From: an uncultured Nitrososphaeraceae archaeon
GTDB taxonomy: Archaea; Thermoproteota; Nitrososphaeria; Nitrososphaerales; Nitrososphaeraceae
Direction: 5' to 3'
Assembly: GCA_963825865.1 (NCBI GenBank)
Contig: CAWGVG010000021.1
Location: 128,001 to 192,000 of the forward strand
DNA length: 64,000 nucleotides
The notes under the pieces are model-generated. The model did not search any database, had not been told where the DNA came from, and was given only the letters and a program-made list of their open reading frames with translations. Shown piece after piece: positions 2,727-56,895 of the stretch (the stretch's first letter is position 1; each line of letters starts with the position of its first letter). The position numbers and the translations under genes are program-made.

Positions 2727-2943
2727 TTGTCTAATTGTTATTTATTGAAGCAGAAATAAAATAAAGAAGAGTAGGTTGAAGAATAATTTTAGGAAGACTA
2801 AAGGTCTTGATGCAACTAAAGCAATCAAACAAAGACTAGAACCAGAGGTTGTAGTCCTTATCCCAAATGTAGGCTTATAGTTTACTTCTTCAAATCGAAT
2901 ATCTTTGTGAACAATATGTCGTATCCGATATATCTCTGCTTTA

Positions 2944-3364
2944 GAGCCTATCCCAAAATTATCCTCCAGTAGACAATAAAACAGCAAGCTAAAGAGACGA
3001 GTGCAAGATAGTTCTCTGATTTCTTTTCATATCTTACTAATAGTTTTCTGAACCTGTTATGCCATGAATTAGTTCTTTCTACAACCCACCTCCTTGCTGA
3101 ATAATATCTTAGCTTTATCAATTCTTCACCTCTGTGACGAATATGCGGCAAGTATCTTCTTTTGGTAGATTCTCTTTCTATTTCTGGATAATCATATCCT
3201 TTGTCCAGACATAGGTTCTGTTTCTTTAACGGTCTTTCAACTATCACATTATCCAGCGTATCTGTTTCAGCCTTCATGTCATGTGTATTTGCAGATGCAA
3301 TAATAACAGAATACTGGAATACCACGCTGGTCTGTTAATACATGGCGCTTAGTTCCTATCTTAC
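2944..3364 (-). mobile_element. Truncated copy of the IS5-family element at 19611-20484 (orfB part plus one TIR)
   Basis: Near-identical to 19611-20030; TIR GAGCCTATCCCAAAA at 2944; LDKGYD and RWVVERTNSW motifs. Confidence 0.9.
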
Positions 3365-3534
3365 TCACTTCTACAGGTTAAGCGAATACCAGGGAAGGTG
3401 GTAGTAGTGATAATAATAGTTGTCCAATTCTTGCCATTGGTTGCCAACTGGCTAGTAATACTTTCCTTAGCCTATCATAGCATATAATCTTTAGTCTTTT
3501 CTCTCTTTCTCTCTTTCTCTCTTTCTCTCTGTTA

Positions 3535-3867
3535 TCATTTATTATCATCACTAGATAAAATACCTTTATCGGCTCCATAAAGATGGTTAATAATGCCTGC
3601 TAGTTTAATATCATAATTACTAATTCCATTAACATCATGTGTTACTAGGTCAACCTTGACCTTGTTGTAAACGTTAAACCACTCTGGGTGGTGATTCATC
3701 TTTTCAGCTTCCATTGCTATTTTTGTCATAAAACCAAATGCCTCCACAAAGCTTTCGAATTCAAAGGTTCGATTTAATTTGCCGCTAACTACTTTCCATC
3801 CTTGGAGTTTGTTAACTTCACGTTCTATTTCTTGTTCTGATAACTTCCGATAATCATCCTCTGACAT
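3535..3867 (-). CDS. phhB: Pterin-4-alpha-carbinolamine dehydratase
   Basis: [17 protein letters not shown]...[17 protein letters not shown] signature. Confidence 0.92.
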
Positions 3868-3997: not shown

Positions 3998-5438
3998 ATG
4001 ACACTAAAAGAAATGACCAACAACAGCAGTAATAGTAGTAACAGTAACAGGCAGCAACAACAACAACAACGACGGCAGCAACATTAGGCAGCTTTAGCAG
4101 TAGTAGTAGTAATATTAGCAAAATTATAGCTTCATCTTCATCTTCATCATCTTTCTCTTCATTATCAGAAGAAAGCTATTACCGCAATTTTAAAAATTCC
4201 TGCAAAGCAGTAGCTACCTTTGAGAGTTATAACAACAAACTCAACAAATATATGAAATATAAAGGATATACAGAGTATTCTCAGTTAGTAGATCCAAACA
4301 AGGATGTCAGGATTATCGAATCTGACATTATAGATTTTATAGTTTATTTAAAAGAAAAACATTACCGATATGAGTCAAGATGTGCTTACCTAAACGCCAT
4401 ATGTCATTTTTATAATGTTAATGATGTTGTAGTTATTCGTAAAAAGAAGATCTCGAGATTTTTGGGCAGTGAAGATGATGATAATAATGACGTTGCTGCT
4501 ACGGCAACGGGAGGAGTAGGAGTAGAAGATCCGCCGCAACAGGAAGATAAACCATATACTACTGAGCAGATCTCCAAACTGCTAGAGGTATCAGACGAAC
4601 GTACCAAAGTAATGGTTCTACTAATGGCATCTGCTGGTTTAAGATTGGGTGCTTTACCAGGTTTAAAAGTAGGTCATTTAATCAAAATTCCTGAATACTC
4701 TAATTATCAAATAACAGCTTATGCCAATTCAAAAAAGTCAAGATATCAAACCTTTTGCACTAGTGAATGTGCAGTAGCAATTGATAACTATCTGGATTTT
4801 CGTAAAAGATGCGGAGAACATGTAACAGCTAAATCGCCATTGCTACGACGACAGTTCAATAGAGATGACGAGTTGCAAACTGCTAACATGGTATTGCCTA
4901 TAGGAATATCAGCAGTAAAGCGGTGTCTAAATAAAGTATTATATGAATCTGGTCTGCGGACCCATTTAATAGAAAAAAATGAAAACAAACTTAATCAACG
5001 CAGAGATATGTCGCAATGGCTCACGGCTTTCGCAAGTTTTTTGATACAACTTGTACGCTAAATGGAATGAATCCTATCTATGTCGAGATTTGTATGGGTC
5101 ATTCACTCAAAGGGGTAAAGGATTCATACTTTATACCACGTGCGGATAAGAATGGCATTTATCGTGATATCTTGGAAGGTAATGACAGAAACCTAGGCTA
5201 CTTATCAATTATGGATGCTCTTACAATAAACCAAGAGCATCGTCTAAAGACTGAGAATATAAAACTAAAAACCGAGACTTCAAAAGTTAACCAGTTACAA
5301 GGCCAGTTAGATAACATGAAAAACGAGATAAACGCATTAACTGGAAGTTTGTATAATATGTTATCCAAGACATCGAAAAAAGAGATTGAAGAGGAAGTTT
5401 CTCAACATATTGAACTTGATGAATCTAAATGGCGTTGA
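3998..5438 (+). CDS. Tyrosine recombinase/integrase, split by frameshifts (4252-5061 plus 5016-5438)
   Basis: SAGLRLGAL (Arg I), AHGFRKFF (HxxR), MGHS and DSYF (Tyr), C-terminal coiled coil; frame is open upstream of 4252 (YYRNFKNSCK). Confidence 0.85.
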
Positions 5439-5672
5439 TTGATAATGATATTGGCCATTTTGGCCGAATTGTGAAGGATAGATAGACTGATTTGGTATCA
5501 GTTACATTTTGTTAGTTAGTTAGTTAGTTAAATGAGTTTTGAGATGTTAAATTGATTCCTTTATTTGATAAAAAGTTCCTAAAGAATATGTCCACCTTTC
5601 TCACAGTAATATTTTACTGCTAAAAGAGACGAGAAGCTTATGAGTGAGCTTTAAGCTGTATGTATTGACTAT

Positions 5673-5886
5673 ATGTTGAGACAGGAAACTTTAAAGAAGG
5701 ACCACCAACTGCATCAGCAGGCAGCGGGTTCAGAATAATAACAGCACTGACATAACAGCTGTCCTTGTTACAAAACAGACTCGCGAAACATTACGGCAAA
5801 TCGGACGCAAAAATGAGACTTACGATCAAATTATAAACCGACTAATTAAAAAATCAAGCTCAATAATGAGGAGCAACGAGGTTTAG
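5673..5886 (+). CDS. Small RHH/CopG-like DNA-binding protein (one frameshift; not in ORF track)
   Basis: Translates TAVLVTKQTRETLRQIGRKNETYDQIINRLI, typical of small archaeal RHH proteins. Confidence 0.6.
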
Positions 5887-6070
5887 ACAAGTAAAATGCA
5901 ATTAAATGGTAAAGTTGGGTACTGGGCAGTTGTTGCCCACCAGTCCAGCACCCAATTGTTAGGTGTGAATCAGCAGTTTTTGTCAGCATGTACAACTCAA
6001 ACTACTCTTTCGACTTTGCAGACCCACCATCAACCACAGCAGTCACCTTCAGGAGCAGGTTCGCCGCTAG

Positions 6071-6361
6071 TTGACTAAAAGAAACGAAGATTCTACAAAA
6101 TTTAAAGCTAGCGAAATTAGAAGTCGTAGAAATAAAGATTTACACAGGAAAATTGATTTTTCAGAATTTAACGACAGGTTTGACTGTCTGCAGCGTGCTC
6201 AAGCAGGAACTCGGGAGCAAGTTAATTGTGTTGAAAACTTATGTTTGGAGCTAAAGGAGTTAATCTCTAACAAGTTATCAGCAATCGAACGAAGTAATAT
6301 ATTATTTAGTCAGATTATCGCTGAAAAGGATCTGAATTTGGATGGGGTGACGATTAATTGA
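6071..6361 (+). CDS. Hypothetical element protein
   Basis: ORF whose stop overlaps the next start; operon-like with the MCM. Confidence 0.5.
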   Translation: MTKRNEDSTKFKASEIRSRRNKDLHRKIDFSEFNDRFDCLQRAQAGTREQVNCVENLCLELKELISNKLSAIERSNILFSQIIAEKDLNLDGVTIN

Positions 6362-6768
6362 TGGCTCAACGAATAATATCGCAACCATCATCATCACCGC
6401 CACAACCAGATTTCTGTGAACTAAAGTTCTGGACTGAGACATGTCTGATTGAAGACATATTCCTTAGACTTGCAGGAACTAAAATAATTGTAAAAAAACA
6501 CGAGGACAACAAAGATGTAACTGTCTACAAATACTATAATCAAGCACTCAGACTAAGATATCGGATTCCTATATACAAACCGACGCCTGAATTCATTGTC
6601 AATAAGTCTGATCTAACACCGCGAATAATGTCCGAGTTAAAGTCACTAGATGCTAAAGACTCTGCAGTTATCTTAAAGCAAGCAGTAGGTTGGATATTCG
6701 CCAACATTGATTCTCGGCAATACAATCTAAGTGTTGCCAGAAAATTGAAAGTGAGGTTAGACGCTTAA
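6358..6768 (+). CDS. Hypothetical element protein upstream of MCM
   Basis: 136-aa ORF ending 4 bp before the MCM start. Confidence 0.6.
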   Translation: MMAQRIISQPSSSPPQPDFCELKFWTETCLIEDIFLRLAGTKIIVKKHEDNKDVTVYKYYNQALRLRYRIPIYKPTPEFIVNKSDLTPRIMSELKSLDAKDSAVILKQAVGWIFANIDSRQYNLSVARKLKVRLDA

Positions 6769-6772
6769 TAAC

Positions 6773-8158
6773 ATGTCTTCGTCACAATCAACTCCATCAA
6801 CAACTACTACAGCAACAGTAGAGGAGAAAGTCAAGAAAACTCATTACTCTGTATCTGAGGCCATAGAAGCAGGATCAGGTAAGAACGTCATTGTAACAGG
6901 AATGATTGCGAGTTATTCCACTCCATACAAAACGATATCTAGATCTGAATGGAAATGTGATAATCCTCTATGCAGTCTAGTTGGAAGTGAATCATACACT
7001 CCGCCATTATTAGTACCGCTAAATAGACTTGATAATACGAGAGGTTTTAGTATAAAGTGTTTCAAATGTGGAAGCACTGCATTTGACGCTTACCATATCT
7101 ATAACAACACCAGACCAATACAATTAGAAGATTCGGACAAGGCAAGTGATGAAGCATATAATAGCACCGACAGACTCGAAGTAGTGCTTTATGACGATGC
7201 GGCTTCTCGAGTAATTGCAGGTGAGATAGTTGATATTGTAGGAGATATAATCACTCAGCGCAAGTCTGACAGCGGTGCTAGTGCTAAGAACAATAGCAAG
7301 AAACTTGTTAATGTACTCCATAGCTCAGATATAAGATATCGTAACAAGGATAAAGTTGTCATAACGCAGAAAGATATTGATACATTCTACAGACATAAGA
7401 GGATCTGCGATGCAGTATATGCCAAAGAACTTGAAGCATCCAAGACCAATAAGCAAATTGTTCCTATGCGATATATCGATAGACTAGTTGCAATGTTTGC
7501 ACCAAACGTATTAGGATATGAGAACGTAAAACTTGGGTTGCTTAGATCCTTAGTCGGTGGTAGAAAGGATCACGGAGACGACAACGGAAGACGTGGAAGG
7601 ATAAACACCGTGTTAGTTGGCGATAAAGGCACAGCAAAATCCATGCTTGGTAAAGAATCTACAAAATTAATTCCAAACTCTAGGTATATCAGTGCACAGA
7701 ATACGAGCGGTAAAAGTTTAGTCGGTATTGTAGACAAAGAGAACGATGGTTACTATCTCAGGTTAGGACCTACAGTATTGGCTAGGAATGCAGTATGTGC
7801 AATCAATGAGTTTGGATTAATGCCGTTAGAAGACCAAGGACACTTAAACGATATTGCAGAGGAAGGTAAAACAACGCTAATCAAATATGCTATAACATTT
7901 GAACTCGACGCGCAGACAACTATCATAGCAATTGCCAACCAATTCAATACAGAATGGAACGATCCAAAGAGCATATCTAAAGACGAGATTCCTATGCTCA
8001 GGACTCTAATAGACAGGAGTGACCAGGTATACGCATTTAGAGACGAACGTACAGAGCAGGAACTTGAACAATATGCCAAACAAAAGACCAATCTAAGAAA
8101 ACGTAGACCGCATAATTACAGGGGGTTGTGGTTGTTTATTTCCTATTTTCAATGTTGA
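6773..8158 (+). CDS. MCM-family helicase (element-type), C-terminally truncated
   Basis: Zn finger (C-x4-C...CxxC), FAPNVLGYENVKLGLL, Walker A GDKGTAKS, Walker B AVCAINEF, IIAIAN, R-finger LIDRSD. Confidence 0.88.
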   Translation: MSSSQSTPSTTTTATVEEKVKKTHYSVSEAIEAGSGKNVIVTGMIASYSTPYKTISRSEWKCDNPLCSLVGSESYTPPLLVPLNRLDNTRGFSIKCFKCGSTAFDAYHIYNNTRPIQLEDSDKASDEAYNSTDRLEVVLYDDAASRVIAGEIVDIVGDIITQRKSDSGASAKNNSKKLVNVLHSSDIRYRNKDKVVITQKDIDTFYRHKRICDAVYAKELEASKTNKQIVPMRYIDRLVAMFAPNVLGYENVKLGLLRSLVGGRKDHGDDNGRRGRINTVLVGDKGTAKSMLGKESTKLIPNSRYISAQNTSGKSLVGIVDKENDGYYLRLGPTVLARNAVCAINEFGLMPLEDQGHLNDIAEEGKTTLIKYAITFELDAQTTIIAIANQFNTEWNDPKSISKDEIPMLRTLIDRSDQVYAFRDERTEQELEQYAKQKTNLRKRRPHNYRGLWLFISYFQC

Positions 8159-8293
8159 TAATTGTCTTTTCTTTGCTCGTTCAGATTCTATCTTTCTTTT
8201 CGAGTTCAAAACCTAGGTCTGCTTGACTTTCTGTTTTGTATTCTCACATATTCTAATTGATAATGGTGTAAGACGACATGCTAAAATTCATGG

Positions 8294-8601
8294 AAATGTG
8301 GGAACCACAATTTTCACTCCAAAACATGCAATAGTAAGAATCAAAACTTGCACCTGCTGTGTTTCTAAAAGCGGGGGTATCCCCGCTTTTGATTTCCGTG
8401 CAACAGTTTTTGATTTCCATCGTTCATATGAATGTCTTCGTATTTCTCTACCATCTATATCACCGAATAAGTCTTTAGTTCTGTATTTGCGGCCATTGGA
8501 CCGCAAATTGATTCTTGTTCTTGCTTCGTCCCAATAAGTGGCGCTACCGCCACTTTTGATTTACTACCAGGTTTACTCTTTGATTTCCATCGTTCATATG
8601 A
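8294..8601. repeat. Two tandem ~170-bp structured units (hairpin A, hairpin B, 23-bp identical tail)
   Basis: TTTGATTTCCATCGTTCATATGA at 8409-8431 and 8579-8601; stems at 8367-8390 and 8536-8555. Confidence 0.8.
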
Positions 8602-8778
8602 TAGATGGAGAGGAGGTAGACAATAATAATGAAAAACTAATACAGAATCTTGCTTTGTCAAATTCTGAAAATGACAAAGCCGAATTCTCTAACAATCCTC
8701 TATATTATGATATGAGGTTCTTTGTCAGTCAGTCAATCATTTATATTGGCAAACGTTGCTTGATTGCTTGATAGTTAA

Positions 8779-9198
8779 ATGTCAACAAATCAAAGTACAA
8801 GTTCAACAAATACAGGCAAACAAGTCCTAAGTGAAGAGACAAAGAAAAAGATATCAGAGATGAGATTAAGACTGGACCAGAAAGCAAGTAATAGGAACAC
8901 CAAGTTTATCAAGTTCAAAGATGGCGATCACCGATTACTGCAAATCATTCCAGATAAAACAACTGAAGAATTAGTTACATATGAAAGCCAGCCAGACAAG
9001 CCAGTTAACAGATTCAAGTTCTATGTGCATGATCTTGGTAGTTCGGAATCAGCTGGTGAGTTATTGGAGTGGACCTGCTCTGAAACAGTTGCTGCAGATA
9101 TTCTAAAGTGGATTGAAAAAGGTTACTGTGCAATGCACATAACTAGAAAAGGTTCGGACCTAAAGACCAAGTATGATATTGACCCACTGATAGACTAG
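8779..9198 (+). CDS. Putative phage-type single-stranded DNA-binding protein (copy 1)
   Basis: KFIKFKDG...ITRKGSDLKTKYDIDP resembles gp32-like SSB motifs; three copies in the window; function inferred. Confidence 0.5.
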   Translation: MSTNQSTSSTNTGKQVLSEETKKKISEMRLRLDQKASNRNTKFIKFKDGDHRLLQIIPDKTTEELVTYESQPDKPVNRFKFYVHDLGSSESAGELLEWTCSETVAADILKWIEKGYCAMHITRKGSDLKTKYDIDPLID

Positions 9199-9613
9199 CG
9201 TTGTGTCACCAATCATTTATTCTTTCTATTCAGTTGTCTCTCTTTTATCTACTGATGAGAATTACGTCAATGATATAGTTCTATTGCATTTCCAACCTTC
9301 TAACAGGCATCGTCTTTTGCTTGCCTTACTTCCAGGATATTGATGTTACTGATTATTGGTAACGTATAAAATTTTTTCCAGAAATGAAATCTAGGTGCGT
9401 TTTGTTTGTTTATGAATTTGTTCATGATGGCTCATGTCCAGAAAAGAATCTTTATAATGAATTATAACGTCAATTCCTAGATTACAAAGTATCCTTCATT
9501 TGATATACTCAATTGTTATACGAAACAAATCCGTAATAAATCATATCAGATAAATCAGCAGTAACTTACTCACTTCAAATATACAGGTGATATTGTAAGT
9601 TGTAATATAATAT

Positions 9614-10232
9614 ATGAACAACACAACAACGAGAACTCTAGCGTTAGTAGCTGTCTTTATGGCGAGCAACATTAGTAGTAGGAACATTTGCAACAACAAC
9701 CACAATAGCAACAACAGGACAATCAGCATATGCTTATTCACAAAAGAAGAAAGGAGGAGGAGAAGACAATGGAAAAGGTAATGGCAACGGCAACACAGTT
9801 ACCATAGAGGAATGCAAGAATAAGGGTTCTGCAAGCGGATTTGATACCGCAGTAGATCAAGAATGTGAAAACCTGATATGTACACATCCAGGTGAAAACG
9901 CAACTTGTGTACAAGAAGGAGCAACAGTAGCAGGAGCAGTGCAACAAGGTAGTCAAACAACGCCAGTAAAACTAACATGCGAACAATGTTTCACAAAGTT
10001 CCTTAGCAGTACACAATTATCCCAACTACTTCAAATATTAGATAGGGCATTCGGGGTTAATAGTTTGCCAGACTTATGTGCAGCACTATCCAGTGGCTCA
10101 AATCCTGAACTAGCTTATCTTTCTTCAAGTATTTCTAGTAAGATTGCTTGGGGAAACAGGAGCGGCTCCGCTAATTCAATGTCTAATAGATGCTGGAATA
10201 GTGCTTCCTACAAGACCAACGTAGGATATTAA
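9614..10232 (+). pseudogene. Secreted/low-complexity protein with signal peptide, frameshifted
   Basis: MNNTTTRTLALVAVFMA signal-like start; Cys-containing segment TCEQCFTKFL. Confidence 0.45.
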
Positions 10233-10831
10233 CCACATACATCAGCAAAAAACAACAATAACCCTCCCTATTTTTTATTACAACTATTTCATTCTGCTGC
10301 GATTCTCCACCACCAAATAACTGTAATGGTGTAGAATATGATCAAGTTGCAGAAGTAGAAGGACTTGAACACATAAATCTAAAATTATCTAGGGCAGCAA
10401 GCTTGATCTGTACTTTTACAAATAAAGAACAAGCGCCATAATCTACCAACCAATCTCCTTGCATAGAATCGGTTCTTATATTTATATATGTATGGAGCAC
10501 CGGCTGTTACCATTACTTTATTCTCCCAATAACTAAACTCTTTAAGGTAGTTAGTATTAGAAAACCGTGAAGTAAAGACGTATGTTTTATCCAGACTCCC
10601 CGGAATATAAGCACAATAAAAATAAAACAATCACAACAATCCATGCAAATGAAATCTATATGTAGCTATTGAAGGTTTTCTTCCTTTTTTCTAAAAAGTT
10701 ACTTTATTAGGTACTATACGGTAATTGTATTGTTCTCCATTGACCTTTGGTCAGACATATTTGTCAACTACCTTTAAGATGGCTTTCTATTGCTCTTCTG
10801 AATCGGCTTCGTTCCTGGAGATAAATTATTA

Positions 10832-12460
10832 TTAATATAGGAATTCAAATGAAGCAATCATTTGCTCTGCAAGAGGAAGGAATTTGAGATATTTTTCTGG
10901 TTTTGAACGATACATTATATGATAAACTTTATTTCCTTTTTTTGTCACAACAACCAATGATTTTTCTCCTTTTTCGATATAAACCAATTGATAAGCAGGA
11001 ATACCTGCTGCAATAGTAGTTGGAATGGATTCAATGAGATGGAAATCAGAAGATGTTTCCTTCAGGTTTTGTATAGTAGAATCAATGAATTCTTTCAGTG
11101 TAATGTTTGGATCTCCAGTTATTCCGATGTATACGCCTTCCAAATAGGAGTCAACAGAACTTTCTTTTGGAGACAGGAATCCTACTACTCTTTGCCATGT
11201 AGCGGGATAGTCTATCTTTATGCCATATTGATCTAAAACACATTTCAGAAAAGTATTATTATTATCCGTTGTTATGTTTTGGACCTGATTCTCGATAAAT
11301 GAATGCTTTGCACTATTCTGGCTGTCGCGACCAAGTTTTGCTCCACATTGATTGCAAAAAGTAGAATTTTCTGGATTAACATTCCCGCAGTTGGAACAAC
11401 TATTACTCTTAAGTTTGGATCCACATTGATTACAAAACCTGGACTCTAGAATTATTGTAACCACATTGATTACAACTTACATATATAGTATTATTAGTTG
11501 ATACAGGTTGGGTTTGAGTAACTTGAATTTCTTCAGATTGATTAAATTTTGAGTCTGTTTGGATAGGTCCACCAATTTGCATATGGCTTTGCTGCCTTTC
11601 TTATTGATTTGACGACTGATGCTAGTCCGTGTGGGTCGCTAACTTGTCTAAATGTAATGTAGGGTTTACCATCAGCAATAAAGACGACATCTCCTATAGT
11701 CATACTAGTAGTTCTTGCATTGCCAAAACCAGATAAGTTATAGCGAGATCTAGAATAACTACCTATTGAATCTGTATTAGATGCGCCGGCTCTGGTTATT
11801 AACTACTACATCTTGAAGTCCTGGCATTAATACTACAGTCCCACTGTGCAGCTTGTAGTCATACTGAAGAACTCTATAATTTGTCAAAACTTCTATCCAG
11901 ATAACTTTCTTGTGAACAATACCCTCAGTTTTCATGTTGTGCCATATTATTTCTTCCCCTTCTGCTAAGAATGGTGTGAGAGGGTAGATGTCAACTGTCT
12001 TTATTTGACCATCATCATTTTGTAAAGTTAGTAAACGGTAGGTCCAATAGACATCATCGAATTCTTTTTGTTTTATTAATTTTATATTGTCTAAAAATTC
12101 CTGGATATATTTCTCCTCTAGATCTATTATGATCCAATAATCCAGATTATCCGTATTGAAGACTATTTTCACCATTAAATCTTCTTTCTTCTTAATCCTT
12201 CCCTTTGTCTCAGAAATTTCTTGAATATCAAGAATATTTGCTATAGGAACTATAGCATCCTGCTTACCTTTATTGTCTACTTTGAAAACTAGCTGTGCAT
12301 CCCATTCCACGGGATGAAGTTCGACTTGTTTTACTTTTTTGTTTGGTTTATGCGTTGAATCCTGAACGATCTCTATTTCATAAGATGGTATTATTAACAT
12401 ATTCGAACCTATTATAGGACGTGACAACTGTTCTGATGCAGGTCGCAGAGGTGTTATCAA
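10832..12460 (-). CDS. Multidomain protein: uncharacterised N-terminal domain, double zinc ribbon, PsbP-like domain (ORFs 11777-12460 and 10832-11464 probably one frameshifted gene)
   Basis: Shifted frame after 11777 stays open into CNQCGYNN, adjoining FCNQCG repeats; YGIKIDYPATW and EQMIASFEF PsbP-like motifs. Confidence 0.6.
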
Positions 12461-13280: not shown

Positions 13281-13571
13281 ATGTGTTTCAAAGATGGCGA
13301 TCACAAGTTACTGCAATTTATTCCAGAGAAGACAACCGAAGAACAGGTTACATACGAAAGCCAGCCAGACAAACCAGTTAACAGATACAAGTTCTATGTG
13401 CATGATCTAGGTAGTTCGGATTCTGCTGGTGAAATACTCGAGTGGACCACATCTGAAACAGTAGCCGCAGATATTCTAAAGTGGATAGAAAAAGGTTACT
13501 GTGCGATGCATATAACTAGAAAAGGTTCAGACTTGAAGACACGGTATGATATTGATCCGTTGATAGATTAG
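13281..13571 (+). CDS. Putative SSB-like protein (copy 2, N-terminally truncated)
   Basis: Highly similar to 8779-9198 from FKDGDH to DPLID. Confidence 0.6.
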   Translation: MCFKDGDHKLLQFIPEKTTEEQVTYESQPDKPVNRYKFYVHDLGSSDSAGEILEWTTSETVAADILKWIEKGYCAMHITRKGSDLKTRYDIDPLID

Positions 13572-14206
13572 CGAGGTCTCTCTCTTACCCGTTTTTAAAA
13601 GTAAAACTTTATTTGTTTTTATGTTTCCCACATAATGTTCCTAATTTTGGTAAAGTTATATTTTCAAACCAAAAACTACTAAAATGGCCAAATTGGCCAA
13701 ATTGGCCAAATCAAAAACCACAAAAACCTAGCACAATATAATGAAGTAATTGGACTTCATGCCCAATTGTGTAAGAATCTTTATAGCGAATGATACTATC
13801 AATTGCTAAATCAGCAAGTATACTTCATTTGATATACTAGATTGTTATATAAAATAGATATATATAGATGACACCATAATCATCGATCACGAAGATAAGT
13901 ATGAACAAAACATCAACAATTCTAGCGACAGTTGCTATCTTAGCAGCACTAACATTAGTGTTAGCAGTAGTGGCAACTACAATAGCAACAACACAATCAG
14001 CATTCGCTTCTAACCGAACGGCAATACAATAACCATTCAGAGAAACGAACAACATGCGACAGTAAGTGGACACGATAAGCATGTGGAGCAATGCTCTTTC
14101 AACGGCCATCCCTGCTAAACTAAATCGAGGTAGCGGTCCAGGACATCAACCATCACCTCTTCCATTATTTTTTAACATTGAATGATAGCAAAAGTTTTAG
14201 CTTCTT

Positions 14207-19430: not shown

Positions 19431-19610
19431 AACGACAATTCAAGAACTATCTAAAATATCAAAAAAATAAAAAAATCTAGTTAGGCTTTTTAGCCCATTT
19501 ATGGTCTGTATTAACCTATGTCAATGTGCATTGTACGTTCCCTGTAAAGGTTCCCGCTGTATTTGGATCTCTATAAGTGATTGTTACCCTGTCTCCACAA
19601 TCCCCACTTA

Positions 19611-20484
19611 GAGCCTATCCCAAAATTATCCTCCTGTAGACAATAAAACAGCAAGCTAAAGAGACGAGCGCAAGATAGTTCTCTGATTTCTTTTCATATC
19701 TTACTAATAGTTTTCTGAACCTGTTATGCCATGAATTAGTTCTTTCTACAACCCACCTCCTTGCTGAATAATATCTTGGCTTTATCAATTCTTCACCTCT
19801 GTGACGAATATGCGGCATGTATCTTCTTTTGGTAGATTCTCTTTCTATTTCTGGATAATCATATCCTTTGTCCAGACATAGGTTCTGTTTCTTTAAAGGT
19901 CTTTCAACTATCACATTATCCAGTGTATCTGTTGCAGCCTTCATGTCATGTGTATTTGCAGATGTAATAATAACAGATACTGGAATACCACGCTGGTCTG
20001 TTAATACATGGCGCTTAGTTCCTATCTTACCTCTGTCAGTAGGATTAGGACCTGTCATTTCCCCCCTAAAGGTGCCTTCACAGATACACTATCAAGCGAT
20101 TGCCACGTCCATCTAATACCTTTGATATCATCATAAACTTCCAGTAGTCTTACCCACAATTTTTGAAATACTTCAGATACTGTCCACTCTTGGAATCGCC
20201 TATGGCATGTTGAACCGGAACCATACTCTTTTGGCAGCATCTTCCATTGGCAGCCAGTTCTTAAGATGTAAACAATGCCATTGAGTACTTTTCTAAAAGG
20301 AACAACAGGACGTCCTATAGTTTTATTTGGTTTTTCAGACGGAAGTAATAGTTTGATCTCTTCCCACAAATCATCTGGAACAATTCTTATAGTCTGAAGA
20401 TGCTTCTTTCTTTTATAATCATAAACCACATGAATAAGGAGAATACCTTCAAGCTATATGCCTATCTATTTTTGGGATAAGCTC
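19611..20484 (-). mobile_element. IS5-family (IS427/IS1031-like) element, complete; two-ORF transposase 20055-20429 plus 19615-20058
   Basis: TIR GAGCC/TTATCCCAAAA at both ends, TTA duplication (19608-19610, 20485-20487); RTGCQWKMLP and LDKGYD motifs. Confidence 0.93.
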
Positions 20485-27701: not shown

Positions 27702-28593
27702 TTGATCCCACAGTTGACAGTAGGCAACCGGGTCAAAAATTATTATGAACTTACAAAACCAAAGATATGGTATTTGCTAGTTTTTACAAGTTTTGGTGCG
27801 GCGTTAACAGCGTCTTTGTTATTTCATATTTCCATTAAACCTTTGACTTGGCTGTTGCTTGTTGGCGGAGTAGCTGCAGGTTCAGCAGCTGCCTGACACA
27901 CTTACAGGCTACAATGATCGTGATATTGATGCGATTATGGACAGGACCAGAGGAAGACCCATTCCATCAGGAAGAATTTCCCCAAAGAATGCATTAGCAT
28001 TTGGTTTAATCTTGGCAGCAATCTCGTTGGTATTTGCATGGTTTATCAATATCTGGGCTATTGCTCTGATGGCCTTTGGATTGTTCGATAACATCATAAT
28101 ATATAGCAAATGGTTGAAGAGAAGGAGCCAAACTAATATCATTTTAGGCGGGTTCTCAGGTGGTGCTCCTGCATTAATAGGATATGTTGCAGTAACAACG
28201 CAAAATATTGAAATTGGTCTAGTTATGGCAGGTCTGGTTTTCTTGTGGATTCCAACCCACATCTGGAGTCTTGCCTTGCATGTTAAAAAGGATTATACAA
28301 GGGCGGGCATTCCAATGCTACCAGTAGTTTCTAGTGAACAGAAATCAGTTCGAGTAATTGCAGGAACAACTTTGATGATGGTTGTATTCAGTATTCTTCC
28401 ATTTTTCTTCAACCAATTTGGATTAATATATTTGATTACTGCAACTGTTTTCGGTGTAGCGATGGTAGCTTTATCTATATGGTTGTTAGTAAAGCCCAGT
28501 GAGAAAGCGTCTTGGACGGTATTCAAATTCTCTAGCCCATATTTGACTGCACTCTTTATTGCGTTTATAATCGATGCAATATTTCATCATTAA
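27702..28593 (+). CDS. ctaB: Protoheme IX farnesyltransferase (frameshift near 27893)
   Basis: YYELTKPKI, DRDIDAIMDRTRGRPIPSG, FLWIPTHIWSLAL, DYTRAGIPMLP. Confidence 0.92.
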
Positions 28594-28594
28594 T

Positions 28595-30822
28595 TGTTGT
28601 ACTACTACACAGATGGGTAACAATTTTGATTACCTACATAGGTTACACTTTCTTGCTTCCTTTTTGTATATGTCTTAGATTTAATTAAACCTTTGTACAA
28701 ACCTTTCAGAAGGAGTAAGACCATTTATTCCACCATGTTCCCTAGTTTCATTATATGCTTTGACAAACATATCATACCTTAGTATTTCCATCATCAATAC
28801 TTGTTATTTCTTCAACTGTCAAGAACTCATTCTTTGACAATCTTGTTATATGCTTCTATCTTTCCTTGTAACTGTGGATATGAATTTGGAATTGGTTTAT
28901 CCTTTATGTTATTACTTATATAGAAAGTGTTTGAATAGTTTAGATGTAAACTGCTTACCGTTGTCATGCATAACTTTCCTGGGCTTTCCGTTATCCATAA
29001 TCCACTCCTCTAGTACATTCAAAAACATCAATGCTCCTCTTTCTTTCAGACCACTTGCTAGCAACTTTTCTTGAACAGTCATCTATACAGCTTATCATGT
29101 AATTTCTTGTGCTAGAACAGCGTACGTAAAATGGTCCAAGTATATCCATTTGAAGCATGTCATTTGGATGTTTCATTGCAAATCGCTTATACTTTCTATT
29201 ATTCTTTACCTTACAGTTTAGAACGTTGAGAGTTATGTTTATTTCAATGTCTTGTATATGGTTCTACTGCTCAATGATACTCCAAGTCTTTTTAATCTGA
29301 ACCTGATTCTAACTACACCAAAGGTCTTTAATCTTAAATCTAAGTATTGTTTCTTCTATTTCTTTAGATACTTGACGATTGGACATAAATCCAGCTCTAT
29401 TATTTTGCAAATATATATTGATGAATTAGGCTAAAGCTATCCTTTGGATGTCTGAATTTGTGATGACATATAATAAAACATCCTCAAAGGACAGCACATG
29501 ATAGTTCAGAATCCATCCTTATTGGTATTCTGTATTTGATAGGCTTGATACCATGGCCAGAATCACAAAAGATGAAAAAAAGAGGTAGACCATACGTCTA
29601 TTCTTCTACTGTCATACTACGATGTTTCATAGTCAGATTGTGGTTTAGAATGGATTCTAACAACGCATTACATGAATTCCTAGGAATGGATTACCCTTAC
29701 AATAAGAAGATAATGAAAAGATGTGGTCTTACCCAAATACCAGATAGACGAACATTTGACAGACGTCTTAAGACCATATCCATAGACATCAAGGAAAGGA
29801 TTGCTACTATGACTAGTCTATTAGTAAATGGGAAGATAATAGACCCTTATATTGTTGCAATAGATAGTACATTGCTCAAAGCCAGAGGACATGTTTGGCA
29901 CAAATCATCTATGGATAAAGGAATAATACCACGTTCAGGTATAGATACAGATGCCAGGTGGGGATTCAGTCATACCAGAGGTTGGATATTTGGTTACAAA
30001 CTACATTTGATATCAAGTACTGGTTCTACCATAGTACCTTTTGCAGCAGATTTTACAACTGCTAATGTACAGGATAATCAAATGTACAATCCTATGATAT
30101 CATCATCATCATCATCTCTGTTCCTAGAAACATGTTTCATGATAGGTGATTCTGGGTATGACGACAATAAACTATATGATTTGAGTACCTAAAAGAGGAT
30201 TTGAACTGGTATGTCCAGTACAAAGGTACAAAAATACCCCAAAGAATAGACTAGAGCTGATACAATTCTATGAATCTGAGTTAGGACAGGCTATTTACTC
30301 TTGGAGAAGTAAATCGTATAAATATAGATAGAACATATTAAATCTATTTTTAGAATAGACCCATTACCGGTAAGAGGCTATCAGAAGGCTGCTTGAATAG
30401 TACTTCTGTCAGTACTACTGTATCAGATCCTTGTCTACTACAATTATAAAACCAGACCTAGTCAACGACCAAAATCAATCAAACACATGTTATGTAGTTA
30501 ATGCAACACTAAATGATAGATGAAAAATATAGAAATGAATTATGCCCATGTCTCAGATACTTTGGTTTTGATGCTATGAGGCCTTCTAGATAGGTCTTTC
30601 AACCCGTCTATTCCGTGCTCTATGTATCTATTTTTCCACTTGTAATATGTCTTCCTAGATATTTCGTATTTATTGCAAATATCGCTAATACTATTACCAG
30701 TCCATTCATGTTCATGAATGAGATTGAATTTTGTTCTAATTTCTATAGAGATTTCCACTTCCTAGCAGAAGTGTTACCTATGTCTGTAAGCTATATTGTT
30801 ACCTATGTTTGTAAGTACAACA
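28595..30822 (-). mobile_element. IS481-family element, degraded, interrupted by a nested IS
   Basis: TGT...ACA ends, ATTAAT duplication (28589-28594, 30823-30828); fragments homologous to 55704-56702. Confidence 0.9.
29374..30554 (+). mobile_element. Nested DDE (DDE_Tnp_1-like) IS with frameshifted transposase (~29478-30500)
   Basis: 8-bp duplication AGATACTT (29366-29373, 30555-30562), weak TIR; AIDST, FGYKLH, GDSGYD motifs. Confidence 0.8.
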
Positions 30823-30823
30823 A

Positions 30824-31546
30824 TTAATAACTCAAAGACAAAGCTTTCTCGCATTCATAAAGTATCCTTGCGATAACAACATGTGCCTCTAATCCAGATT
30901 TTCCAATAGAACATAAACAAGTGAATAACTTACTTATATTGTCAGAGAAATGACCTTTTGGAAATCCACCTATCACAAATGCACAATGGGGATTATTATT
31001 TTGAGCAATATTTTTTGAAACTACTTCTTCAAACGTATGTTGAGCTCCCAGAGTAGAAAGGCCTATCAATTTATTAGGCTTGACTATATTCTTTATCAGG
31101 CTTTCGAACGTAACATTATCATATATTTTTAAAAGAACATTATTATTATTACCTTCCACATTTTTTATAACTCCATCTTTAAACAAATTCATCATTAAAC
31201 CTTCGAAACGAAAATATGATTTTGGTATTCGTAAATTTTCACCAATAAAAATTACTTTATTATTTATGGTGGAGACGTACACTTTTAGTATGCCTTTGAA
31301 AAATAAAGGTGTCGATAATGCCTCCATCAAGGCAAAATGGGTTATATCTGGCCTGCCTCGTTTCCATTCTGATTTCAATCTACATTGTATCATTCAGCAT
31401 GATGGTAACTTCTATCTAGCAGAATTTCTGTGGGCTTTTTGCCAGACTTATGAGCATGTTTTTTGACTGAGGAATGGTGCATAATTTCATTTGGTACAGT
31501 TTCCAACGCAGCCTCAGCGATTACTAACGATACTAGCGGTAGCAAT
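30824..31546 (-). CDS. nep1: rRNA small-subunit pseudouridine methyltransferase Nep1/Emg1 (frameshift near 31395)
   Basis: AEAALETVP...LLDRSYHH, RGRPDITHFAL, RIPKSYFRFEGLM, IGGFPKGHF. Confidence 0.9.
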
Positions 31547-46967: not shown

Positions 46968-47416
46968 CTAATTTATCAAAGGATCAATGCTATACCTGGT
47001 TTTGATGTCCGATCCTTTTCTAGTTACATGCAATCACGAAGTAACCTTTTTCTATCCACTTTAGCATTTCTGCCGCTTACAGTTTCAGATGAAGTCCATT
47101 CCATCTCCTCTTCAGTCGCAGACTTAGAACTTCTAAGCTCATGCACACAAAACTTGTATCTGTTAACTGGTTTGTCTGGTTGGCTTTCATATGTAACTAT
47201 CTCTTCGGTGGTTTTTTTGGGACAAATTGCAGTAACTTATGATCTCCATCTTTGAACTTGATGAATTTCGTGTTCCTTGAAGATGCTTTCTGGTCTCCAA
47301 TTGTAACCTCATATCTGCTGCCTTACGTTTGGTTTCCTCACTTAGGACTTGTTTGCCTGTATTCTTTGTACTTGTTTTTTATTTACATTTACACTTGCAG
47401 TTTGATTTGCTGACAT
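46968..47416 (-). pseudogene. SSB-like gene copy 3, frameshifted (not in ORF track)
   Basis: Reverse strand reads GKQVLSEET..., VTYESQPDKPVNRYKF, RKGSDIKTRYSIDPLIN*; upstream sequence matches that of 8779. Confidence 0.8.
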
Positions 47417-47865
47417 TTTACTATCAAGCAAGCATACAACGTTTACCAATATGGCTTTTTTCATCTTACATTGTTATCTAGATCATCATACTCTGTTGAT
47501 TCTTTACATACTCTATATGGCTTGAATTCTTTGCATTTACATTCAAACAACCTTGCGATAATCACGCTTGTGGCTTCAGATTTACATGAATTGATGAAAT
47601 TCCTATAATATTCGTTTGAATTATACCCAGAAATTTGATTGATTTTGATTTTGATTTTCTGTGACATCGGTTGTTGGTATCAGTATCAGAAAACTGCTAT
47701 TAAAGTCCATAACTACATTAACTAAAATAGTTGTTTTATATATAATTTTTTGCACATATATATATATATATATGCTATCTCAGCTAACTTGACAAGGCAT
47801 ATCTCGTTAAAATTAGCGATTTGGGTTTAGTTAACTATATTAAGTCTTGACATCGTTTCAATTTT

Positions 47866-55389: not shown

Positions 55390-55694
55390 TTGCTTATGAT
55401 TTATAGATCAATGATTCTGTGGATATATACTGATATATCTAATTTGTTTCTGTTTTTCTAAGTGTTTCATAAGATGAAATACGAGAACATTATGGACCGA
55501 TGAAAGTGGAATAGCTGGATGTATTGGATTCAATTAAAGCAGCAAATTATATGAAATGACGTGAAGCTTTTTCAAAATATGACTCCGATAACATCTGCTA
55601 AGCAAGAAACTTACTTTAGCCTACCATTAAGTACATAGATATCACATGTAATAATTAAAGCATGCTTTTTTGTTCTATGATTCAAATTATTAAT

Positions 55695-56722
55695 TGTTGG
55701 TACTTACAGTGATAGGTTACACTTTCGATTACCTACATAGGTTACACTTTCTTGCTTCTTCATTCTGCATACAGTCGAATTATTGAATCTTTGTATAAAC
55801 ATCTCAGATGGAGTCATACCGTTTATTCCACCATGTTCTCTAGTTTCATTATATGCTTTGACAAACATATCATACCTTAGTTTTCCATCATCAATACTTG
55901 CTATATCTTCAATTTTCAGGAACTCATTCTTTACAATCTTGTTATATGCTTCTATCTTTCCTTGTAACTGTGGATAGGAATTTGGAATTGGTTTATCCTT
56001 TATATCATTCCTATGCAGAAAGTGTTTGAATATTTTAGATGTAAACTGCTTACCGTTGTCATGCATAGTCTTTTTGGGCTTTCCGTTATCCATAATCCAC
56101 TCCTCTAGTACATTCAAAACATCAATGCTCCTCTTTCTTTCAGACCACTTGCTAGCAACTTTTCTTGAACAGTCATCTATACAGTTTATCATGTAATTTC
56201 GTGTGTTGGAATAACGCAGATAAAAAGGTCCAAGAATATCCATTTGTACCATATCATTTGGATGTCTCATTTCAAATCTCTTGTACTTTCTATTATTCTT
56301 TATCTTACACTTGAGGATGTTGAGATCATGTTTCCTTAATGTCTTGTATATGGTTCTGCTACTCAATGATATTCCGATTCTCTTTAGTCTGAACCTGATC
56401 CTGTTACAGCCAAATCTCTTTAGCCGCAAATCTAGTATTGCTTCTTCCATCTTCTTGGTTGTCTTGTACTTGATATTATGAGGTGTCCTAGACAGGTCAG
56501 CGAGACCTTCTATTCCTTGTATTTTATATCTATTCTTCCACTTGTAGTACGTCTTTCTGGATACACCATATTTCCTACAAATACTATTTACGGTGTTACC
56601 AGTCCATTCATATTCATGAATGAGATTGAATTTTGTTCTAATTTCTATAGATATCCACTTCCTAGCAGAAGTGTTACCTATGTTTGTAGGTGATATTGTC
56701 ACCTATCTCTGTAAGTACAACA
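55695..56722 (-). mobile_element. IS481-family element with intact transposase 55704-56702
   Basis: TGT...ACA ends, ATTAAT duplication (55689-55694, 56723-56728); HTH plus QMD / IDDCSR / DNGKQF / GKIE rve motifs. Confidence 0.93.
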
Positions 56723-56895
56723 ATTAATAACGAGTGATAAAATCGAGTGCACTCCTCTAGTGACAATGTAATTTTATACTTGCTTGTTTATTTTAAATTG
56801 TTGATAAATTAATTGATAAACAAGCTTTAATTTTCGATACCACGGTCTATATATGTTTTTTATAGAGTCGAAATTAATGATAAACAAGAATAGAG

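Follow-up and report, generated by a model that had tools for sequence, protein, structure and literature searches.

Integrated elements of the Staphylococcus aureus pathogenicity island (SaPI) and staphylococcal cassette chromosome mec (SCCmec) types have replication origins that immediately follow the helicase gene and are made up of short direct repeats (iterons) together with inverted repeats that could form hairpins, according to the part of PMC7581432 consulted here. For SCCmec, the same part of that article gives a 23-bp direct-repeat region as the binding site. Cryptic integrated elements encoding MCM have also been recorded in Thaumarchaeota (PMC6563490, likewise in the part consulted). 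Across the portion of the literature examined, no description of a cis-acting replication site was found for those integrated elements of these archaea that encode MCM, and the words 'hairpin' and 'origin of replication' have 0 occurrences each in the main text of PMC6563490 as available. Here, we analyzed a 64,000-nt stretch of DNA from an uncultured Nitrososphaeraceae archaeon (the window, G000:C21:128001-192000; all coordinates below refer to it unless a contig is named), which holds a decayed integrated element with an integrase gene, a truncated gene for an MCM-type helicase and, behind the latter, a non-coding region with two diverged repeat units. We propose region 8290-8700 as candidate cis-acting DNA, that is, an iteron-plus-hairpin origin or an operator, of this defunct MCM-type element; our estimate for this reading is a probability of about 0.35.

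The element resembles SaPI and SCCmec, as these are described in the consulted part of PMC7581432, in being integrated, in encoding a replicative helicase of the MCM-like or AAA+ kind and in having a non-coding region with direct and inverted repeats right after the helicase gene. It differs from them in its host, since SaPI and SCCmec are bacterial, and in its repeat sequences, which are unrelated to theirs. Furthermore, the SaPI/SCCmec region is conserved among elements and bound by the C-terminal domain of the helicase (again from that part of PMC7581432), whereas here no related copy was found and the C-terminal part of the helicase is lost. With the cryptic elements of Thaumarchaeota it has in common the chromosomal integration and the combination of an integrase with MCM as main replication protein; no origin, hairpin or repeat region is described for those in the consulted part of PMC6563490, and the element studied here is broken.

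The genome containing the window comprises 62 contigs with 4.98 Mb at ~35% GC, and its features are archaeal, with a cellular MCM, orc1/cdc6 and origin recognition box (ORB) repeats; the genome features suggest a thaumarchaeon living in soil. Searches for relatives took in this genome itself, 150 other genomes of the family, GTDB, IMG/VR, JGI metagenomes, plasmids, phages and Rfam. The family set includes the unpublished genomes G034, G100 and G122, which are counted in tallies only, with no claim based on them alone.

Two repeat units with unevenly conserved blocks

The two-unit repeat between 8339 and 8606 is real and beyond chance. Its parts are as follows.

Repeat unit 1: 8339-8436, no strand assigned; MAFFT alignment and nhmmer, 116.4 bits with the covariance model R1
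Repeat unit 2: 8506-8606, no strand assigned; MAFFT alignment and nhmmer, 122.2 bits with R1
23-mer, copy 1: 8409-8431, no strand assigned; exact, repeat finder
23-mer, copy 2: 8579-8601, no strand assigned; exact, repeat finder
11-mer TTTTGATTTCC, two exact copies in unit 1: 8387-8397 and 8408-8418, 21 nt apart; repeat finder
11-mer, two copies in unit 2 matching at 10/11 bases: 8554-8564 and 8578-8588, 24 nt apart; repeat finder
Near-palindrome of 24 nt: 8586-8609, CATATG flanked by two inverted arms of 9 nt; overlaps with 23-mer copy 2

Aligned with MAFFT, the units are identical at 67/98 bases with one 3-nt indel, and in an nhmmer search against the whole genome each unit recovers the other at E ~1e-5. 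This bears out a preliminary description of the locus, made from the letters of the sequence, which had proposed a tandem repeat of two units with an identical 23-bp tail. The tail is indeed the same at 23/23 bases, and with up to 3 mismatches allowed it matches twice in the window (0.00 expected). Tandem Repeats Finder did not detect the 170-nt period. Each unit has the same order, namely a GC-rich palindrome (hairpin B, below) followed by two direct 11-mers, the second of which merges into the 23-mer. All copies of the 11-mer at the locus point in one orientation and, within each unit, lie about two helical turns apart, the first of them starting 229 nt past the MCM stop codon. With one mismatch allowed, the 11-mer has 14 copies in the window compared with 3.35 expected, four of them at the repeat locus. 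The run CTTTTGATTT behind hairpin B is also the same in both units, and in the stretch upstream of hairpin B they agree at 17/30 bases only.

The alignment thus shows two units that are the products of an old tandem duplication. Of the duplicated sequence, nothing but the 23-mer, the 11-mers and the palindrome's pairing has been preserved, and the remainder has drifted to ~55-65% identity. Such uneven conservation between units argues for past constraint on these blocks rather than neutral drift. Because no frame looks protein-constrained, as set out further below, we place the conserved features at the level of the nucleic acid.

For the near-palindrome, the repeat finder reports 15-nt arms with 87% complementarity; about 0.05 palindromes of this quality are expected per 600 nt by a rough estimate, and alone it is not significant. 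The complementarity between 8443-8458 and 8601-8613 that had been pointed out before belongs to this near-palindrome and is real, with an 8-nt perfect core plus 4 more pairs and a 1-nt bulge. AT-rich DNA adjoins the units at about 8614-8650.

Hairpin B keeps its pairing

Several hairpins are found in and around the repeat.

Hairpin B, unit 1: 8367-8390, 10-bp perfect stem with 4-nt loop, AAAAGCGGGG-gtat-CCCCGCTTTT
Hairpin B, unit 2: 8536-8555, 8-bp perfect stem with 4-nt loop, AAGTGGCG-ctac-CGCCACTT
Weak hairpin TGTGG-gaa-CCACA: 8297-8309, no strand assigned, 5-bp stem, not conserved in unit 2
Hairpin with 8-bp perfect stem and 8-nt loop: 8485-8508, no strand assigned, without counterpart in unit 1
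Hairpin with 9-bp perfect stem and 11-nt loop, GCTTTGTCA / TGACAAAGC: 8652-8680, no strand assigned; repeat finder and folding

Hairpin B lies where it had been placed before, with the stems and loops given then and with TTTTGATTT directly behind it in both units. Two of its 8 common stem pairs are changed on both sides (C-G to T-A and G-C to C-G) and none is broken, so that all 4 differing bases fall within two pairs which stay Watson-Crick. By simulation, the probability that all 8 pairs are kept given 4 substitutions is ~0.002, a count based on a single paralogous unit pair and two changed base pairs, with no homologs behind it. The compensated pairs contain no G-U step and hence do not tell the strand. 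Stems that differ while their pairing is kept had been taken as a sign of selection on structure. For hairpin B this stands, on one paralogous unit pair, but it does not extend to a second hairpin (A), for which a conserved pair had been claimed at 8297-8309 and 8485-8508. The former is a trivial 5-bp stem located 188 nt from the latter instead of 167-170 nt, and 8485-8508 aligns opposite ~8318-8341, which forms no hairpin. As the two members of this pair are not at homologous positions, only hairpin B is conserved between the units.

A census of the genome (perfect stem of at least 8 bp with at least 4 GC, loop of 3-8 nt) yielded 122 distinct perfect hairpins in 4.98 Mb, compared with 73 in a shuffle. 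The hairpins starting at 8367, 8485 and 8536, which together span less than 190 nt, form the only cluster of at least three inside 200 nt. Folding of 8280-8700 gave z = -5.95 for the plus and -4.90 for the minus strand; for the single units on the minus strand, z was -3.9 (unit 1) and -2.2 (unit 2).

The repeat lies in a stretch bounded by two breakpoints

Integrase of the element: 4252-5438, plus strand; frameshift resulting in overlapping open reading frames (ORFs) at 4252-5061 (269 aa) and 5016-5438 (140 aa)
MCM-type helicase gene, 3'-truncated: 6773-8158, plus strand; Pfam P-loop core, no MCM_lid
Orphan stretch: 8124-8742, no strand assigned; from the MCM breakpoint to the onset of paralog homology at 8743 (window self-blast)

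Judged from its genes, the integrated element is decayed and defunct, because its MCM gene is truncated and its integrase gene frameshifted. The integrase has weak matches to Pfam Phage_integrase and to a PHROG integrase family. Its first ORF matches aa 1-254 of homologs with ~400-aa frames, and the second aligns with aa 292-393 of a homolog of 403 aa at 55% identity (E 3e-41) and carries the catalytic C-terminus (..HGFRKF..). The MCM protein has the P-loop AAA+ core (PF00493, E 1.2e-35, aa 233-437), but the AAA-lid (PF17855, MCM_lid) was not found in it, whereas the two closest relatives (61% and 56% identity; 622 and 617 aa) have this domain at aa 435-506 and 424-494. Homology to full-length relatives stops at ~8123, after ..RRPHNY, and tblastn did not find a C-terminal MCM piece in the window. 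Among related MCM frames ending in a stop codon, 22/25 have at least 600 aa, compared with 461 aa here. The window MCM gene is accordingly a 3'-truncated pseudogene.

At 8743, at the TATA-like TTTATATT, homology starts to a second copy of the downstream gene, which is broken and lies on the minus strand (46968-47452). With MCM homology ending at ~8123 and paralog homology beginning at 8743, the stretch 8124-8742 is bounded by two homology breakpoints. In the simplest history, a single deletion would have removed the last third of the MCM gene (3' end) while sparing the former intergenic DNA. The location between MCM and SSB genes given before has to be qualified: the MCM gene is truncated and the label SSB (single-stranded DNA-binding protein) relies on a weak fold likeness. 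The truncation, the orphan stretch between the breakpoints and the lack of conservation of hairpin A were absent from the preliminary description.

From the sequencing data, 11 runs were listed, each with a small share, and four of them (X1, X5, X8 and X10; 3 DNA, 1 RNA) were mapped as contigs. Positions 8214-8718 are uncovered in 4/4, which is uninformative on expression or presence. One 238-nt contig of the rhizosphere metatranscriptome run X10 is identical to the truncated MCM gene at 7689-7926; it could reflect transcription of the pseudogene or carry-over of DNA in the library.

No relatives of the repeat among the sequences searched

Searches of the same genome by blastn, nhmmer and R1, the covariance model built on the two units, gave no match besides the repeat locus itself. 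A DNA search of 61 related genomes returned only chance matches of 22-38 nt, and the best match of R1 in the 150 other genomes of the family had an E value of 0.009 per genome. Its three best outside matches were rejected as AT-rich chance matches with neither the hairpin nor the 23-mer. As an exact word, the 23-mer was found 0 times in GTDB genome contigs and 0 times in IMG/VR; a 20-mer had one match in the JGI metagenomes, on an unrelated contig (L059), which we consider chance. Plasmids and phages contained no DNA match to the repeat, and the orphan stretch as a whole had neither a DNA match nor a translated one elsewhere in the genome, in related loci, in plasmids or in phages. Homologs near element MCM or SSB genes, which the preliminary description had looked to for support, did not appear either: the 48 related loci (29 MCM and 19 OB-fold gene loci) gave no blastn, nhmmer or tblastx match, and the translated search (tblastx) of the orphan stretch against them revealed no match to another gene. 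The window MCM protein itself had no related loci in the collections genome_contigs and viral_contigs.

No Rfam family reached its gathering score anywhere in the window. At E <=10, the best matches in region 8100-8800 were snoR31 with 21.9 bits (gathering score 44; 8602-8692) and sraA with 19.5 bits (gathering score 56; 8358-8447, minus strand), both far below threshold. Three further candidates were dropped: a tRNA or attachment (att) site, as the window has no tRNA genes and no third copy of the 23-mer; a miniature inverted-repeat transposable element (MITE) or the end of an insertion sequence (IS), as the repeat recurs nowhere else in the genome; and a C/D-box or H/ACA small RNA, for which no box pattern was seen by eye and the Rfam matches are below threshold.

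Comparison with the origin of the host

The likely chromosomal origin of the host is located ~42 kb before the window (L074, 1-1800; G000:C21:84207-86021). It has ORB-type repeats at 223-250 and 288-311 of L074 and, enclosing an AT-rich stretch, an inverted pair at 382-407 and 532-558. These repeats lie just upstream of the only Cdc6_C match of the genome (C21:85707-85976). The orc1/cdc6 gene is present as two overlapping ORFs (C21:84794-85570 and 85470-86021), which may result from a frameshift or an assembly error.

The region in the window is like this origin in that repeats are clustered in non-coding DNA next to a replication gene, and read on the minus strand the 11-mer has a short GGAAAT core in common with the host ORB repeats. 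A few bases past this core, unit 1 has a G run as in the host ORB; in unit 2 the G run is absent and pairing is kept instead. However, the ORB repeats of the host exceed those of the element in length, are arranged as inverted pairs on either side of an AT-rich stretch and have a G run at their end, whereas the repeats of the element are all direct. A loose ORB-like pattern matched unit 1 only, as one of 108 matches genome-wide. The inverted ORB pairs and the adjoining orc1/cdc6 gene that mark an ORB/Orc1-type origin were not found at the repeat locus, and unlike the host origin the element has no orc1/cdc6 gene.

Possible roles of the region

As a cis-acting region, 8290-8700 might have worked as follows. 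An initiator or regulator, encoded by the element or by the host, would bind the direct repeats as iterons; the palindromes together with the AT-rich DNA would help melting or mark the loading site of the helicase, and the OB-fold protein would then coat the single strands. Through the deletion of the MCM 3' third, the shortened gene would have come to lie next to this region. The repeats look like binding sites because the best-kept blocks, the 23-mer and the 11-mers, sit outside the hairpin and recur, with all copies pointing the same way. The repeat-rich non-coding DNA of the element is confined to this locus, with nothing comparable at 5400-6120, and it lies directly after the helicase gene and before the OB-fold gene. 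As in an iteron origin, short direct repeats (11-mer x4, 23-mer x2) stand right after the helicase gene, with MCM truncated at the junction. If true, this would provide a concrete candidate sequence for the binding of a helicase or initiator, and the elements would use repeats unlike the ORB sites of their host. Being an orphan known from one copy only, and that in an element which is broken, the region is a lead rather than a finding that changes the picture, and its interest is modest.

Several observations weigh against such a role. No relative of the region turned up in anything searched, hence comparative support is missing, and conservation among related elements was found in none of the 29 MCM and 19 OB-fold gene loci. 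Downstream of MCM, at least two hairpins occur in 0/25 related loci and one hairpin in 3/25; upstream of the OB-fold gene, 2/12 loci have one hairpin and 10/12 none. The adjacency to MCM is secondary, with the gene broken exactly at the junction, and the region is unlike the host's own origin with its inverted ORB pairs and orc1/cdc6. Moreover, the pair changes on both sides would fit an RNA hairpin equally well, and with integrase and MCM broken, this DNA can be explained without any present function. Small tandem repeats are also found just after the MCM gene of the closest full-length relative (L010), where two 12-nt units lie over the stop codon (3348-3371) and two 18-nt units follow at a distance of ~450 nt (3811-3846); they are unrelated to the repeats of the window.

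Rather doubtful, but worth weighing carefully, is a functionless relic, in which an old tandem duplication in decaying element DNA would have acquired its stem changes by template switching instead of selection. Template switching in a quasi-palindrome alters both arms in one event. A relic would suit the decay of the element (MCM truncated, integrase frameshifted), the further broken copies of the downstream gene in the window, the orphan stretch found in this genome alone without relatives and the small basis of two units with covariation on two pairs. Neutral drift, however, should be even, while the chance of finding 23 identical bases in a row, in surroundings of ~58% identity, is ~3e-4 by our own estimate; the repetition of the 11-mer inside each unit is not explained by a single duplication plus drift, and the three perfect hairpins are the sole such cluster in 4.98 Mb. 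That the units are two tandem small transcription units of the minus strand, starting near the 23-mer and ending at hairpin B plus a short U tract, is unlikely. Their RNAs of ~65-70 nt (~8431 to 8362 and 8601 to 8532) would be regulatory, after the model of plasmid counter-transcripts that serve as regulatory RNAs, or leaderless micro-ORFs. This would explain the pairing kept through two double changes and the minus-strand folding of both units, and it agrees with the A/T-rich octamer found in both units ~24-26 nt upstream of an ATG inside the 23-mer, for which we suggest a promoter role. The minus strand of 8124-8620 is also purine-rich (skew 0.163, AT skew 0.236) like the sense strands of this genome (mean 0.097, sd 0.074), and 0.1% of antisense windows reach 0.163. 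This skew could stem from minus-strand transcription or, equally, from plus-strand T tracts behind the gene row. The supposed promoter regions differ between the units, unit 2 has only a weak U tract behind hairpin B (tail TTATTGGG), and the micro-ORFs (20 and 17 codons) diverge after residue 6. Added to this, the RNAs have no Rfam family, R1 found no further copy, and the only mapped RNA contig sits on MCM. Less likely again is an undescribed replication-control module of archaeal MCM-type elements, with the two cassettes (each a palindrome, two 11-mers and a 23-mer) as an origin that loads the helicase independently of Orc1-type ORB sites or as a copy-number antisense RNA pair; its first copy would be seen here because MCM-type elements are thinly sampled.

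Very unlikely, in our view, are stacked plus-strand terminators of hairpin and T tract that would close the gene row from integrase to MCM. A consensus scan calls plus-strand sites at 8297, 8485 and 8536, as consensus matches only, and counts 6 sites in 6000-11000 against 2.2 expected; on the plus strand, each of the four hairpins is followed by a T-rich tail, and T tracts abound in 8124-8290. The region resembles bacterial intrinsic terminators and counter-transcribed RNAs of plasmids in its GC-rich stem, 4-nt loop and flanking A and T runs, and in stem pairing that survives sequence change. Yet archaeal termination requires oligo-T and is not known to need hairpins, and the host is archaeal. 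Only 17 of the 122 hairpins in the genome have a T-rich tail on either side, which speaks against a general use of hairpin terminators, and it would be left unexplained why conservation is best in the 23-mer and the second 11-mer, both located past the supposed terminator. Highly improbable, finally, is protein coding on the minus strand, be it by two small genes or by a single frameshifted one that contains an internal repeat. The minus strand holds ORFs with a SYERWKSK..KSK..PL motif at 8455-8661 (68 aa) and 8288-8506 (72 aa), which the preliminary description had taken for probable shadows. Both frames are open, with codon scores of 0.040 and 0.043 like the other small ORFs of the element, the indel between the units has 3 nt, and the strand has the sense-like purine skew. 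These scores are ambiguous, as real genes have 0.107 +/- 0.089 and shadow ORFs -0.080 +/- 0.128. On the other side, the 68-aa ORF had 0 matches among 1.84 billion representatives and the 72-aa ORF 0 relatives at near and at longer lengths, neither belongs to a Pfam or PHROG family, and TTG is the sole start codon of both. The unit period of 167-170 nt places the two copies in different frames, and synonymous/non-synonymous differences between the units across the six frames (3/15, 5/16, 2/18, 1/19, 2/19, 4/14) reveal no coding signal, with 4 against 14 in the frame of the ORFs being no better than the other five. The ORFs are thus most likely shadows, as assumed before.

The downstream gene and other features of the window

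Gene for a 139-aa protein with predicted OB-like fold, possible SSB: 8779-9198, plus strand; AlphaFold2 (AF2), Foldseek and VIA
TATA-like TTTATATT: 8740-8747, plus strand, 32-39 nt before the downstream ATG; putative promoter element

Neither Pfam nor PHROG has a family for the 139-aa protein, and a sequence search revealed no relative in the PDB. Its AF2 model, based on 14 sequences, reached a pLDDT of 84.2 and displays strands and one helix in OB-like order. The best Foldseek match was the SSB P12 of PRD1 (E 0.047), with 0 matches at E <=0.001. VIA gave Z scores of 6.5 for T4 gp32, 6.4 for RB69 and 5.7 for PRD1 P12, none of which reaches the Z of 8 below which the tool advises caution, and in the atlas one cluster at rank 8 carries Phi29_Phage_SSB on 17% of its members. 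From the model, an SSB-like protein is plausible.

Relatives of the protein occur in 20/150 other genomes of the family, and several mostly broken copies are present in the same genome; no related loci were found among viral contigs. On four contigs of other genomes (G035:C488, G063:C26, G002:C49 and G019:C14), the family is located 0.3-3 kb from an element-type MCM. With regard to its putative promoter, the upstream regions of genes in this genome show a 3-fold enrichment of TTTATAT. A promoter model of the same genome found no positional signal across 899 upstream regions, and the enrichment of upstream k-mers was partly polluted by IS copies; promoter calls were hence made by eye.

Further copies of the OB-fold gene in the window are 5'-truncated (13281-13573, 86% DNA identity) or frameshifted (46968-47452, minus strand, 75%), and 8914-9735 also matches 13287-14009; these copies belong to a mosaic of element fragments in decay. 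Contigs C27, C33, C6 and C5 carry other copies, likewise broken. The genome has six further matches to element-type MCM on contigs C29, C15 and C62, several of them fragments and one (C29:7494-8787) in two frames. Such decayed MCM elements, being many, may help to explain the large genome size.

Fragments of IS4/IS5-type transposases (DDE_Tnp_1, DUF4096, DDE_Tnp_4) were identified at 2047-2658, 2941-3364, 19608-20030 and 19615-20429, with 2941-3364 and 19608-20030 being 97.9% identical over 424 nt. In addition, the window contains direct repeats 27 kb apart, namely 28586-29364 and 55686-56456 (0.8 kb, 87%), and a second such pair at 30568-30831 and 56470-56731 (0.26 kb, 81%).

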